Counted from the stretch's first letter, positions 3,801-27,101 are shown. The stretch: 58,436 nt of DNA from Vermamoeba vermiformis (GCA_045837725.1 JBEWZL010000132.1:248001-306436); one strand, 5' to 3'. Numbers and translations: made by a program. The notes: a model not told the origin generated them from the letters alone.

Positions 3801-4754
3801 CAAGGTGAGTAGACGTGATACTAATCATCGAAACAGAAACGCACTACCGAAACAGTTTGTTGGCTAGAAGTCCCGCACCTGCCAACAAAGTTGAAGCAGA
3901 AGAGAAGAAGCCTGCTCAACCCAAGCAAAAGCAAGAGAAGAAAGCTAAGGCTGAACAAAAGAGCGAGAACAAGACCGAACACAACAAGAGGCAAGAGAAC
4001 TCCAGCGCTGCTCCTTCGTTCAGTTTCCTCTTTGGTATGTTTGAATATTACTTGCCTAAGCCGGTGTTAACTTATTACAGAATACCACTACCGAAACCGA
4101 TTGATGCAGCAACCTGCAGCTAATCCTGACGCTAGCAATACCAACACTAAGAAGTCAAAGAAGAACAAGTCTGAAGAAAAGGCTGCTCCTCAAGAGGTTG
4201 CCGAGAAGGTCGAGGAGAAGGCTGTTCCCGAAACAGTTGTAGCCCCGTAAGTATTTATAGCACGCACTCTAACTGTCAGGCACTAACGACCATTCAGTGA
4301 ACCAACCACTGCTCCTCAAGAGGAAACAAAGCCCGCTGCCGCTGCTGATGATGACTTTGACGTGTTTGGTGAGATGACTGAAGAAGAGGCTGCCAAGAAG
4401 GCTGAGAACGAGAAGAAGGCCGCTGAAGAGAAGGCCAAGAAGGACGCTAGCAAGAAGGCTCCTGTTATCGGCAGATCTACCGTCATTCTTGACGTCAAGC
4501 CTTGGGAGGCCGATGAAGAAGGCTCCACCAAGATTATGGATGAGATTGATGCCGCCTGCAGATCCATCCAACAAGAGGGTCTTGAATGGAAGGCCAAAGA
4601 GATTATCAAGATCGGCTTCGGTATCACTAAGCTGCGTATCATGGCCAACATTGTTGATGACCTCGTCTCTGTTGACGGTATTATTGAACAAATTCAAGAC
4701 AAGTTCGACGAGCTCGTCCAATCTGTTGATATCTTTGCCTTCAACAAGCTGTAA
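888..4754 (+). CDS. Large multi-exon protein: Bfr1/PPI-like coiled coil + E/Q/K/R-rich helical repeat + C-terminal eEF1B beta/delta exchange domain
   Basis: The C-terminus DDDFDVFG...RSTVILDVKPW...IGFGITKLRI...VQSVDIFAFNKL is the EF1B GEF domain. GT-AG introns 2577-2624, 3784-3836, 4035-4080 and 4247-4297 keep the upstream ORFs in frame. Confidence 0.75.
2740..3730 (+). repeat. Coding degenerate tandem repeat (EAEAAEKQRQEEERKK-type; likely single alpha-helix/coiled coil)
   Basis: ORF 2640-3800 is almost entirely E/Q/K/R/A with recurring blocks. Confidence 0.9.
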
Positions 4755-4961
4755 TGTTAGGCAGCAATTGCTCTGCGCTAGTTTGAAACAATAAAAACCT
4801 TCATGCGAACAAACTTCCTATAAATTAACTCCCCCATTCAGTTAGCGTAGTGGTTTTATTTATAAGCACGTGCGCCAATAAACAACTCAGAACGGTTTCA
4901 AAAATTTAAAACCGATGAATTGAAATGGCGGGAATAATTGTTAGTTTGTTAGTAGTAAGCC

Positions 4962-21868: not shown

Positions 21869-22080
21869 CTTGAATGTTTAATGAATAATAATTACTTAAA
21901 TATGGAACTACTTGTGGACGCGTAGTTCGTTAATGTTATTGTCAACGGATCTACAGTAAAAATAAAATTGCTGACGCTGCCTGTCGGAACACGAAAATTT
22001 GGATTCGATTTCCGACATTTCCTGAACACATCCACGTCTACGACAACAAATCCGATTTATCAACCTTTACATAATTAATC

Positions 22081-22534
22081 ATGGCTGACAAGGCAAAGTT
22101 ATTTGAAGTAAGTCAGTCCGAGGAATCTTAATTTGACATTACCACCTTTTACAAGCGAATAAAATAATTGATATCCCTCAATATTAATTCTATTATTGTA
22201 TTTCGCAACTCGCTTGTGCATTGCTTTTTTGATTCTCCAAATAGATTTTTTGTTGGATCCAAATTCAAACTCGCAGTAATTAACCAATTCTTGCAGCAAA
22301 AAATCAAAGAAGCCAATCCCGAGCCACCTAAAATATCCAAGCCCGCTAAGCAGCGCACTTGGACTCCTAACGCCGTTGAACAAGGAGGCAGCTTGGATTC
22401 TGGTCATTACGTCAAGTAAGCACACTTTAACCTTATAAATTATTTACTAATGAATTACTAGACAAACTGTTGCGAAGAAAGGTTACGCTGAAGGACAACT
22501 TCCGCCCAAAAAATCAATCGCAGATCTGCCTTAA
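22081..22534 (+). CDS. Small (about 72 aa) uncharacterised protein, 3 exons
   Basis: GT-AG splicing gives MADKAKLFEQKIKEANPEPPKISKPAKQRTWTPNAVEQGGSLDSGHYVKQTVAKKGYAEGQLPPKKSIADLP*. Confidence 0.65.
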
Positions 22535-22609
22535 AATATCTTCACAGATTCTCTACTTGTATCATATATTCCAATACACCGCTTTAATTACATCTATATA
22601 CAACCGGTC

Positions 22610-25600
22610 CTATTCACTCTTTTCGTCAGTCTCGTGCTCATTTTCATCTTCAACCACGAGTCTCATCGTTACTTTCACGAGTGAGTCCTCGCCAATGCCG
22701 ATGTCCACAAGTTTGACCTGAGTGAATTCAGGCACCACGTCCAACACGCGCGCATATCTGCCCGAGCCTATGCGCAGCTCTACAGCCCACGCAGACGACA
22801 AGACAATGCCGAGCTCGTCCAACAAATCGCCGATGCGTGCGTTGATCTTAATGTACACTGTGTGCATGTGAAATTTCTTCTCGAACTCTTGCACGTGAAT
22901 CACTTTGAACTGCATCAATCCTTTGCACGCTGAAGCGACAATGCCGTGCGGTTTCAATCGTCCTTCTGATATGTCTGACAGCACGTTGTCGGGATTGTTT
23001 TCATTGCGTTGTGCGATGAAGATATTAATGTCCATTCGTTTCACATCGGCCGGTAGTTTCTGCGACAAAAGTCAGATCTTTGCTGGGAGAGCGAGTTAAG
23101 TAATTCGTTACATACTGTGAAATATTTGCCCAAGTAGTATCCAATCGCACTCAGAATAGCACCGAGCGAGGCCTTGGAGGTCATTTGACCACCAGCACTG
23201 GCCAACAAGGGGAAGTTGAACACGAGTACTTTGTCGTCGCCCTTCGTGATGACAGCGTCAGCGTAGTCCTTGAATCCTTCTTTCAAGAACGCTTTAGCGG
23301 CCTTGAACACATTGCCGGGACTGCCAGCTCCTGAGGCCTCTTGTCCACACACGAGCCACAGTTTGAATCGGTCATTGATCATGTCAAAGGCCTTGCAACC
23401 TCCGTACTTGGGCACAGCTTCACCCTGCTTGCCTGACAATCGATCTAATTCACCCAACTTCTTCACGGCATATCTCAATAGTGTTACTAGTGTTTGCGTG
23501 CCGTAGACTTCGGTCAGGGTGTATAGATCATCACCGACTTTAGTCAATCCAATTGACGAGGCAACTGTTAAACTAATTGTTAGGACACCAAATAATAGTT
23601 ATTCAGAAAGAGACTCACCGTGTCCTCGAATAGCAAGTGGGTCCATAAACTCGTTCCTTATAATTAGTCTTCCGAAGTCTTCTAAGGGGATTGTAATTTT
23701 GTTGAACGGTGAGAAGTTGTGTCCGTTCAAAATATTACTCGTACGCTGAGGCAGGCCAGATGTCGGTGTTTCATTCGTGTTTGAAGGCAGAATGTAGTTC
23801 AGTTGAGGTACTGGTGCCACCCAACCCATTGCCGCTATTTCCCTAGAATAACATTAGAGCTTCGTCCTTTGTAAATCACAAGGCACTTACTTTAATGTCT
23901 TTTGCAGCAGTTCTACGCGCTTAGGGAACGGCAAGGTAGGGTCGAAGTTGATCGTGTGAATGTTGTAGTTGATCTGCAAGTGCTGCACACGTGTTGGAGC
24001 GACTTCATCAGGTGTGAGCCAAAAGTGCGGTCCAATGCCACCACCGAGACCTTCAGACACTTCATCGAGAATGCCCAACAAGTCACGATCTCTGAGTGAT
24101 GTGCCGATGAAGAAGAAGCTGTACTCCGATGAAAGCTGTCGCAGCAATTCATTCAGTGAAATATCTTTGACCATGATAGCACGATAATCCGCGTGACTCA
24201 ACACGAGTTCCTTCTTCCCACGTGGTGTGAAATCTCCGTGAAGTTTGAGTAACATTGGTGGTCTGCGCATTGACTTCAATTCAGCGTAGAACAAGTGCAC
24301 GTCCTCTCTAAATCTGACTGGGAGATGAGTGCCTTCACGCTTGGCCATGCGATTGGACTTGGAGTATGCAGGACTGGCGTAGGCCTGTTCGAGCATGGTG
24401 TCCCAGTTCGTGGTCAATACAGCGGGCCACGGACCAGTGACGAGAGGTTGAAGTTCAGCCAAGACACGCTGCATCACTGAGCGGTGATTGGCTTCAACTC
24501 TATCAATGGCACTCTTCTCGGTCTCTATGAACTTCTTTTCAATGCAGCTCCACATGTTCTTGCCTTGTTGCTTCAACTTTGCAGCACCAAACTGTGCCAA
24601 CACCGTCAAGTCCTCGCTGTTGCGCGCCTTGTCGTACTCGTCTAACTTGCCTGCTTCTTCCCACAACAACTTGACAACGCCTTCCCATCCTCCGTAGCTA
24701 ATATTAAGAGTTATTAAGTATATGTTACAATTAGTAACGTGACCTACATGCTCCAAGTGACACCAGCGCCGACCCAAGGAATGACACGTCGTTTAGCGAG
24801 TCGATTGATGAGTGCTTCGCGAATGCTGGAAGAAGCAAGTGACTGGTCCAGACCACTCTCACCGTCGCCGAGAATAGATCTGTATTTGAGCTGCGGTGGT
24901 GACGGTGTGGAGCGAGGAGGTTTTGGACTGTCTGGTACGATCGGCGGCAAAAATTTGTTGGGCACAGGCGTTGGTCTCGTTGTAGAAGGCAAGCCCGAGG
25001 ACGGAATGAATATCACCCCGTCGTCTGATGCGCTCATCTTGCTCGGCAAAGTCTTTGATGGCGCTACAAAAATAAGAACGTTAACCACCAATTTAATTTT
25101 TGCTACAAGATCAGCTCAAAAAAAATTAAATCGCCGATTGAGTCATAAGCTGGTCATATCAACGTGAGCCGAAAGATTAGCAGTCTTAGGCTTTAGTTGA
25201 TTATGCGCAGTACATCGAAGTGTGCTACCGTTACACCACAGGACCGTAGGCCCTGCCAGGAGTCGAACCTGGACCTCTCGAGTGAGAGTCGAGAGATGTA
25301 CGCGCAGAGAACCAGCTCGTGCAGACATGAGAGCGGCGCAAGGTGGTCGTGCGCGTTTAAGGAGGTCGTTTAAAAGTTAGATCGCAGCTGCGATCGGCCG
25401 AAGACCCAAAATTTAATATAATAATACTTCGTCAAGATACAATAGCTATTGTACCATTATTTTGAGCTGTCGGTTCGAAACAATTTACAGCAATAAAAAT
25501 TCAAATTTACCTTTCAACAGCGATTTGGCTTTTGGCAAGCTTCCCTAAATAAATACAATATTTAAGGATTTGTTGTATATAAAGAGGCAGTTCAATTTAC

Positions 25601-25747
25601 CCATGAAACTTTCAAGACTTTTTGTGGATTCGATTTCAGTTCGCGTCTTGATTTTGATGCATCACCACTCGGGCGATTAAAGAACACTACTACTATAGCA
25701 ATAATAAAGCTCGCTAAAAATAATACGAGCACAACGTCAACTATCAT
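22610..25747 (-). CDS. N-terminally membrane-anchored SIR2_2-type sirtuin domain protein with macro-like and ubiquitin-like C-terminal segments
   Basis: Exon 1 25747-25601 (MIVDVVLVLFLASFIIAIVVVFFN), exon 2 25544-25511 and exon 3 from 25063 are in frame. SIR2_2 motifs: VIPWVGAGVT, VLTTNWDTMLEQAY, LLKLHGD, LVLSHADY, FFFIGTSLRDRDL. Confidence 0.8.
25118..25338 (-). ncRNA. Putative structured intronic ncRNA enclosing the permuted tRNA (nested end-pairing helices, 3' hairpin, oligo-U end)
   Basis: Helices CGCCG/CGGCG, GAGCTGGTT/GACCAGCTT and TGCGC-GTACATC/GATGTAC-T-GCGCA; hairpin 25201-25158; T8 at 25125-25118. Boundaries are approximate. Confidence 0.5.
25221..25293 (-). tRNA. Circularly permuted tRNA (anticodon CUC, nominally Glu), or a permuted tRNA-like module
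   Basis: 3' part 25293-25248: CTCGA-CTCTCAC-TCGAG AGGT CCAGG-TTCGACT-CCTGG CAGGGCC T. Spacer AC. 5' part 25245-25221: GGTCCTG TG GTGT-AACGGTA-GCAC A. Rejoined, these give a 71-nt cloverleaf with all stems paired. Confidence 0.8.
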
Positions 25748-25947
25748 TGGTGCTGATTAAATGAAATACATAATATCAATATAATAATATTAAATACAAT
25801 GCTCTTTCGTCACACTTGATTAGTGTTCGGTGGAGTCGTTCAGTTACAAAAATGGATCGCACAAACCATTCCAAGTTTATTCTGCCTCGGCTTATTTTCA
25901 TTCAACACAAACACAAAATCATTGATAGTCGTAAACAAGGATTATTA

Positions 25948-27101
25948 ATGATGAATCAAACATCTCTAAGGCGAATACAAATCATTACGGAGCAGTTGGT
26001 GCCAACTGGACCATCAGATTCTGCCCAAGGCTTGGAGAGGCTAGATACGCATTGCAAATGCGATGCTAAGCAGACTTATTACGAGTGCCCTCAAGAGTAA
26101 GAGTTAATATTGTAGGTAAGCTTGTAGGTCCCACTAACGCGCTGATCAGGTATGAATGCAACGAGCACCAGCTCAGTTTATTTTTGGGAGGCGGAGTAAC
26201 GGGGTAAGGAAATATATAGCCAACCTATTAAGGAATTTGCCTTTCGAGCCTTAATTTTTCAAATATCGAAATTACGCACGGTGCGGAAATGTAATATTCG
26301 CTTGATCCGGCTCGCCATTAAGAAAAAAACAATGATATTATTGATGTGTATTATATACGATTTATTGCGTTAATTTTCGGCTCTTCGGTCAATCTCATAT
26401 TAACAATCTTAAATTTGTCAGCTGTCCTAACTGGCAAGCGGAAGTGACCGAAAAACTCAAAGTGAAATGTCCGCGATTAATTGTACTCAATCCTAAACGC
26501 GCTAATTTTGATGTCAACGACCACTCATTGCACGATGAACAAATTGGCTGGGAATTTAGACACCTGCGATTAGCCAGTGCCATTATGTTCTGTACGTAGG
26601 AATCATTATTGTATAATTTAATAATAACGTAGGTCATAATGTAACGTTATTAGTTTCGCGGACAGTTCCACATTTAAAATAATTTTTAAGTTAATTTCAT
26701 TTATTGGTGGCACTCTTTCTAAATGAATTAATATTGTAATAGGGTTCCCATGCGAGACACTGTGTCCTATTACATTGTACGAGCTCGGCACGTGGAGTAT
26801 ATTGTCACAGCAAACGGGTGCAAAGTTATTCGTTGGTTGTCACCCCGAGTACAAACGAAAGGTACCTTTATTAGTGACGAATCGTTAACATATAGTGAAA
26901 ATTTAATATGGATGTTCATATAATACTCAAATTAGCTTATTAATCGTATTTACGGCGTGGAAACTAATTGTTATTGTCATTCTCTAGGCTGATGTTGAGA
27001 CCCAAACCAAGCTCGTGCGACCAGATGTGCGCGTAGTGTCGAGCATTGATGCTATTGTGCAGCAAATAACGGACTGGTACATCAACTTGAACGATCATTG
27101 A
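25948..27101 (+). CDS. Nucleoside 2-deoxyribosyltransferase-like protein (Nuc_deoxyri_tr2-type) with PTS2-like N-terminus
   Basis: Spliced motifs LFLGGGVTGCPNWQAEV, VLNPKRANFD, QIGWEFRHLRLA, WFPCETLCPITLYELG, VGCHPEYKRKADV. Confidence 0.8.

Follow-up and report, generated by a model that had tools for sequence, protein, structure and literature searches.

The window analysed here, a 58,436-nucleotide stretch of Vermamoeba vermiformis DNA (GCA_045837725.1, JBEWZL010000132.1:248001-306436), carries on its minus strand a seven-exon gene (25747-22610) whose joined open frame encodes a protein of 808 amino acids (aa). The protein consists of an N-terminal hydrophobic anchor, a basic linker, a Pro/Ser-rich spacer, a SIR2_2 domain, a macrodomain and a β-grasp (ubiquitin-like, Ubl) domain. 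With a probability of about 0.45, we read it as a ligand-gated, membrane-bound SIR2_2 (SIRim) enzyme of bacterial origin, which would cleave NAD+ (NADase) under the control of its own macrodomain and serve cell-autonomous defence. On sequence comparison, its SIR2-macro-Ubl core is a rare family common to compact bacterial proteins and scattered eukaryotes.

The SIR2_2 domain spans residues ~136-442 and matches the Pfam family with 79.7 bits (cut-off, 24.5). It starts in exon 3 (24748..25063), which encodes the Pro/Ser spacer followed by the GAG motif, and has its core in exon 4 (23891..24697). The four motifs listed in an earlier note made from the DNA alone were all located in the translated protein, namely GAG at 159, TTNWD at 261, KLHG at 317 and FIGxSLxD, here FIGTSLRD, at 362. 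The same note had remarked on the lack of the classical sirtuin Zn-finger cysteines, and the Zn-binding Cys tetrad, which the SIRim subfamily lacks according to the SIRim preprint (10.1101/2024.09.18.613514), is indeed absent: the SIR2 domain possesses one Cys and the whole protein four scattered ones, with no CxxC. A phmmer search of the PDB with the 804-aa orthologue P0163 gave no significant match. A family profile built from eight compact relatives was searched against solved structures, and the best relatives were anti-phage NADases including ThsA (6lhx, E 1e-15), KomC and DSR2; by the same profile FAM118B scored E 0.0016 and SIRT2 E about 0.6. With ThsA far ahead of SIRT2, the placement among ThsA/DSR-like SIR2_2 domains holds. 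In the profile alignment, N263 of TTNWD and H319 of KLHG in exon 4 correspond to ThsA N112 and H152, both of which are described as needed for NAD+ cleavage, an activity that the mutants lose (PMC7272460). The His-Gly pair is conserved in 30/30 core-family rows, near-duplicates included. The protein is a member of the SIR2_2/SIRim subfamily and a predicted NADase, which would work like ThsA but is not a ThsA.

The macrodomain is spread over three exons: exon 5 (23619..23842) encodes the SIR2 end, a low-confidence linker and the first macro strands, exon 6 (23116..23564) the core with the glycine-rich loop FPLLASAGG at 627, and exon 7 (22610..23059) the remainder, followed by the β-grasp domain, an acidic tail and the stop codon. 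Its fold was found on an AlphaFold model of the orthologue P0001 (541 aa, 29 sequences; predicted local distance difference test score, pLDDT, 74.8; predicted template modelling score, pTM, 0.72), which shares 91% identity with the window protein across aa 267-808 with a single gap and in which residues 215-435 correspond to window aa 481-701. For this segment, every row listed by Foldseek, EcThsA among them, is a macro domain or a macro fusion or design, and the best 50 rows from VIA are macro folds with Z of 13.4-17.0, the best being the PARP14 macro domain (Z 17.0, root-mean-square deviation (RMSD) 2.9, 179 aligned residues). Structure comparison of the predicted model by both programs therefore bears out a macrodomain after the SIR2 domain. 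The pTM of 0.72 for the 541-aa model suggests that the domains are packed. Pfam Macro gave no match in the window exons and sub-threshold ones in 2/30 relatives, and for the C-terminal half no family in Pfam, PADLOC or NCBIfam scored above threshold. The glycine-rich loop aligns with that of macroH2A and is among the best conserved parts of the domain (P628 22/25, L629 23/25, G633 22/25, G531 23/25). Judged by its residues, the macrodomain looks like a divergent reader rather than a hydrolase.

The β-grasp domain comprises aa 706-794 (22921-22655). In a separate model of exon 7 (pLDDT 84.2), it matches ubiquitin-fold domains, with Z 9.0 and an RMSD of 2.5 over 77 aligned residues for the Ddi2 UBL domain and a Foldseek E of 3e-4 for OTU1 UBXL. 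A Z of 9 is modest, yet nearly all listed rows share the ubiquitin fold, as had been proposed for the last ~90 aa. The C-terminal di-glycine is absent, and the protein ends with a 14-aa acidic tail; from the lack of di-Gly we infer that the domain is not a conjugated modifier.

The six introns (56, 447, 50, 48, 54 and 56 nt) are all bounded by GT..AG. Joints were found at 6/6 of them, with CT..AC ends, in four runs of RNA-type data: two consist of raw RNA reads from a diverged relative (171 and 165, mostly <90% alike), and the other two are sets of contigs presumed to be RNA. Exon 1 (25601..25747) encodes the start codon, a 23-residue signal anchor (25747-25679) and the first part of the basic linker. 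Exon 2 (25511..25544) is a basic micro-exon of 34 nt with joints on both sides, and its peptide is also present in P0163. The 447-nt intron 2 (25064..25510), which contains a tRNA-like element, is skipped in X11 reads and in X1 and X3 contigs. One 559-nt contig joins exon 1 to exon 3, and the orthologues P0163 and P0166 (804 aa, from intron-free contigs of 2.9 and 2.6 kb) begin with the hydrophobic segment and contain the exon-2 peptide and every downstream domain. The two 5' exons that the earlier note had added thus belong to the gene, and the 559-nt contig together with the intron-free orthologues rules out separate transcripts. A start at Met71 only is not required, because exons 1 and 2 are spliced in; a shorter isoform may exist. 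RNA-type contigs without a long open reading frame (ORF) lie directly upstream of exon 1 (25898-26100 and beyond) and possibly represent a 5' untranslated exon, a neighbour or a non-coding transcript. On the plus strand at ~22079-22580, a small spliced gene with a 46-nt intron in RNA converges with the SIR2 gene; the tested frame has no Pfam match.

The N-terminal region has the three segments anticipated from the DNA: a hydrophobic helix (residues 1-23, Kyte-Doolittle 3.37) with no preceding basic residue, a basic linker with 12 K/R in 46 aa, and a spacer in which 25/65 residues are P or S. According to the positive-inside rule, basic residues after the helix and none before it suggest an N-out, C-cytosolic orientation. 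The anchor is retained in the 804-aa orthologue, and transcript P0187 confirms that the first exon of the C126-type paralogue likewise encodes a hydrophobic segment of its own.

A profile search covering 1.84 billion representative proteins yielded 707 matches, 31 of them at E <=1e-30. SIR2 and macro matches occur together in 34 of 172 proteins plus the window model, mostly with the Ubl domain as well; the count of 34 takes in near-duplicates and the sequences from which the profiles were built. The compact members (520-610 aa) are bacterial in type, two of them from named Myxococcota genomes. Among 30 proteins looked up, three bear eukaryote names (Entosiphon sulcatum, Sycon ciliatum and Sphaeroforma arctica) and one a EukProt label. 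The Sycon and Sphaeroforma records break off ahead of the macro domain or soon after its start, and the Sycon one (P0017, RefSeq), which carries the family SIR2 domain, could be a true animal member, a symbiont or a contaminant. Three eukaryote-type proteins (P0024, P0028 and P0030) have an additional ~200-aa C-terminal domain without a Pfam match. A sister clade with support of 100/100 (P0118, P0099, P0123, P0126, P0130 and P0136) consists of bacterial-type SIR2-macro(-Ubl) proteins, of which P0118 has Gln for the catalytic His. In the ESM Atlas, the first match (0.96) is a bacterial SIR2_2 cluster with 86 members and a length of 604 aa, and another, at 0.85, to a Macro/SIR2 cluster is no more than a lead. 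When the macro-Ubl part served as the query, word-based searches found one protein each, and no viral relatives of the SIR2-macro-Ubl protein were found. Among plasmid records, none covered 80% of the query and 25 matched SIR2 only.

Three bacterial loci were inspected. The metagenome homologue at L029 lies in an operonic contig of 62% GC and adjoins BREX-2 pglY, pglZ, brxD and brxHI together with McrB-like and Nudix genes. L028 has an AAA ATPase neighbour and is cut by the contig end, and in G001 the upstream genes read as housekeeping and the downstream ones are SMI1/KNR4 and NYN genes. In the phylum of G001, 1/401 genomes matched, which is the seed itself.

A bacterial origin is likely. In the SIR2 tree (59 rows), the family forms 34 rows at 100/96 and includes a 19-row group at 99/93 made up of the window lineage, Sycon, Sphaeroforma and long insertion-rich proteins taken as eukaryotic, with Entosiphon outside resolution. 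The macro+Ubl tree (27 rows) does not recover this group and sets the window lineage among bacterial-type rows (84/76). The two trees disagree on a single eukaryotic origin, and there may have been one transfer or several. The amoebal genome (G000) has four SIR2_2 matches, which fall into three types and all include the macro part. Two of the paralogue copies (G000:C126:443876-444220 and G000:C115:43026-43370) score identically and are either a recent duplication or an assembly haplotig.

On the preferred reading, the helix and the basic residues would insert N-out/C-in and hold the enzyme at an endomembrane, on its cytosolic side. The macrodomain would then bind an ADP-ribose (ADPR) derivative or an ADP-ribosylated target without hydrolysing it. 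Binding, together with membrane crowding, would assemble the SIR2 domains and start the cleavage of NAD+, in the manner of SIR2-SLOG ThsA. The β-grasp domain would act as a fixed interaction or turnover module that stays unconjugated, and NAD+ loss or an ADPR signal would be the output leading to cell-autonomous defence. Analogies are the SIR2-SLOG ThsA gated by 3' cyclic ADPR and the ADPR-induced oligomers of the transmembrane (TM)-macro ThsA (PMC11204291; 10.64898/2025.12.03.692087), in which the macro domains are described as oligomerising upon ADPR binding (PMC11204291).

We infer a defence role from the SIR2_2 membership, the retained catalytic residues and the one bacterial homologue beside BREX-2. 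Several observations weigh against it. A recognised defence island was found at only 1/3 bacterial loci (L029). TIR_2, the ThsB-type partner, had no match in G000 with one model in a genome that is perhaps incomplete, and none among the eight L029 ORFs scanned, the other two bacterial loci being cut by contig ends. In the family alignment, no conserved acidic residue stands at the adenine position and no conserved Asn at the NAAN position, the adenine-binding Asp and the NAAN Asn being what we take to be the macro pocket motifs; for want of the acidic residue, the macro domain may be unable to bind ADPR. The helix was found only in two of the lineage's three paralogue types: the third showed no anchor in its 5' frames, and no bacterial-type row exceeds a Kyte-Doolittle value of 1.3 within its first 120 residues. 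From these two absences, the membrane anchor is read as a lineage-specific addition. The window neighbours are housekeeping genes (transketolase, Arf-family GTPase and 5'-nucleotidase), and the copy number of the family in G000 is low. Identity to the orthologue is 93% in SIR2, 88% in macro, 90% in β-grasp and 42% in the helix, and the domain values therefore speak for conservation and not for arms-race divergence. Of the earlier proposal, the anatomy stands, with RNA joints, models and profile behind it; the immune role itself is a plausible reading, with the housekeeping neighbours and the high conservation against it.

The neighbourhood, the few copies and the conservation would equally suit a domesticated, non-immune enzyme of NAD+/ADPR turnover or signalling at the membrane with weak constitutive activity. 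Its transcripts are present in runs not selected for infection, and the human FAM118 proteins are described as individually very weak NADases (PMC12700824). This alternative is possible but doubtful, given that bacterial members of the SIR2 subfamily are reported to be 12-fold enriched near anti-phage systems (10.1101/2024.09.18.613514), that the distribution is patchy and that one homologue sits in a BREX island. A bolder form of the defence reading is unlikely: a one-gene Thoeris I/II hybrid with a β-grasp domain would have passed from Myxococcota-type bacteria into early protists, become anchored, and would sense ADP-ribose species made by an invader at an endomembrane without a TIR protein and, by depleting NAD+, kill the infected cell or halt its growth as a form of abortive infection, with an undescribed bacterial counterpart.

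A SirTM-like unit is less probable still. Here the SIR2 domain would ADP-ribosylate a protein, the macrodomain would read or remove the mark, and the β-grasp domain would dock the unit on p97 or proteasome-type machinery at the endoplasmic reticulum. Known sirtuin-macro pairs both write and erase ADP-ribosylation (PMC9503650, PMC12700824), and the top β-grasp matches include OTU1 UBXL, Ddi2 and USP UBL domains; however, these matches are tied at Z 8-9 and point to no partner, the β-grasp domain is already in bacterial members, and the Zn-less SIR2_2 domain is closest to NADases. Least probable is a macro fold that has lost nucleotide binding and forms with the β-grasp domain an autoinhibitory lid or a protein (pathogen) sensor like the C-terminal domains of the DSR type, which would fit the divergent pocket, the scarcity of Pfam Macro matches and the lack of a TIR_2 signal generator in the genome and the scanned L029 ORFs, but not the phosphate loop that ranks among the best conserved parts.

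Intron 2 contains, also on the minus strand, an element of ~265 nt (25125..25385), which has a ~210-nt core of a single fold with a T run behind it. A second nuclear copy, apparently intronic and in sense orientation (L015:4455-4722, minus strand, = G000:C3), shares 93% identity with it over 266 nt, the flanks of the two copies being nearly identical. A 14-nt motif stands on both sides of the C3 copy (L015:~4380-4770) and not around the window copy. Within the element lies a permuted tRNA (25221..25293), in which the 3' half (25293-25248; CTC anticodon arm, T arm and acceptor 3' strand) precedes, after a 2-nt spacer, the 5' half (25245-25221; acceptor 5' strand and D arm). ARAGORN called a poor tRNA-Glu in intron 2. 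With the halves swapped, a full cloverleaf results that ARAGORN accepts in both copies, and no other place did so among 194,748 half-swapped windows. Within the 73-nt tRNA core the two copies differ at eight positions, of which four lie in the anticodon loop (CTC vs CCT); no stem is broken. A 216-nt stretch folds with a z of -4.72, which 0/200 shuffles equalled. Rfam gave sub-threshold scores of 27 bits for tRNA and 24.4 bits for YrlA (gathering score of YrlA, 69). The genome-wide box pattern had 16 matches, the two element copies and 14 on G000:C309, where tandem tRNA clusters are repeated inverted; we read C309 as an organellar genome that may have been assembled twice.

Like the permuted tRNA genes of algae and Thermofilum and the bacterial Y RNA YrlA, with which it was compared together, the intron-2 element has its 3' half ahead of the 5' half, an acceptor stem closed by a short loop, a flanking stem and a downstream T run. 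The known genes, from algae and one archaeon, are described with breaks at 15/16, 20/21, 37/38, 50/51 and 59/60 and a bulge-helix-bulge (BHB) motif (PMC3978253), whereas the break here, at about 26/27-28/29, matches none of these five junction types; inspection of three possible junctions in both copies revealed no BHB, though a relaxed motif is possible. YrlA is described as having the same closed acceptor stem and no anticodon loop (10.1101/312249), whereas the element keeps that loop, and no Ro60-type TROVE gene was found in the genome. The only TROVE locus found is a TEP1-like gene with TROVE and WD40 (L082:2478-9149, minus strand, = G000:C304; open frame of 2224 aa), which suggests a vault system. 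As this locus is TEP1-like, a Y RNA with Ro60 was rejected. A gap-filler for a missing anticodon was rejected since ordinary tRNA-Glu(CTC) and tRNA-Arg(CCT) genes exist, and a mitochondrial tRNA fragment since BLAST matches to the C309 loci did not hold up. Read depth is zero over 25221-25474 in the four runs, none recorded as a small-RNA library. No viral copy was found, and none of the literature matches listed concerned permuted tRNAs in amoebae. The element may represent an RNA that mimics a tRNA, or else a mobile or decayed unit of small size; only tentatively do we see in it an unrecorded eukaryotic tRNA-mimic RNA of YrlA-like topology. If it is expressed, permuted tRNA-like RNAs would be known from a further eukaryotic lineage.

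Free-living protists are hosts to giant viruses as well as intracellular bacteria, yet few of their cell-autonomous defences are known; the SIR2-macro-Ubl family is a testable candidate for one. The bacterial members would define a candidate single-gene system without a PADLOC or NCBIfam model, and their ~570-aa intron-free versions suit laboratory phage and NADase assays. The identity of the macro ligand would reveal the ADPR signal read by a TIR-less SIR2 effector. The earlier note had called the protein a defence-type NADase architecture in a protist; its parts are confirmed, but it overlooked that the core is present in bacteria and that eukaryotic proteins with SIR2 and Macro are in print. 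The latter are not new, because the SIRim preprint describes the sirims of clade C, found in 83 species, as typically a fusion of SIRim with Macro (10.1101/2024.09.18.613514). The words "ubiquitin" and "transmembrane" have no match in the text of that preprint, whose Table S4 could list the family, and neither a SIR2-macro-Ubl protein nor an anchored form was found in the open literature covered, including the accessible parts of PMC12700824, PMC9503650 and PMC8195603. What we have not found in print, and regard as new, is the ubiquitin-like domain and the anchor on SIR2-macro.

Compared with the known systems, the window protein resembles the clade C sirims, as far as the preprint describes them, in combining a SIR2_2 domain that lacks the Zn tetrad with a macrodomain in a eukaryote, in branching with ThsA-like bacterial proteins and in a proposed immune role. 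By architecture it is a candidate member of clade C, whose 83 species contrast with a EukProt label on 1/30 proteins here. FAM118A/B (SIRal) are likewise eukaryotic, Zn-less SIR2_2 proteins with the catalytic His; however, the match is weak, and the sources covered report no macro, Ubl or anchor domain for them. The type I ThsA of Thoeris is among the closest solved SIR2 domains, keeps the Asn and His and has the same effector-then-sensor layout. Its C-terminal SLOG sensor, however, is not present in the window protein, which models there as macro (Z 16-17) and β-grasp domains, with PADLOC ThsA matches that span SIR2 only, and which has an anchor in addition and no TIR partner found. The type II ThsA (TM-Macro) shares an N-terminal membrane helix and a macrodomain, with EcThsA among the fold matches; it lacks SIR2 and acts by membrane disruption, whereas the window protein has a single helix and places the enzyme between helix and macrodomain. 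In design, the protein combines the effector domain of type I Thoeris with the sensor fold of type II Thoeris in one chain.

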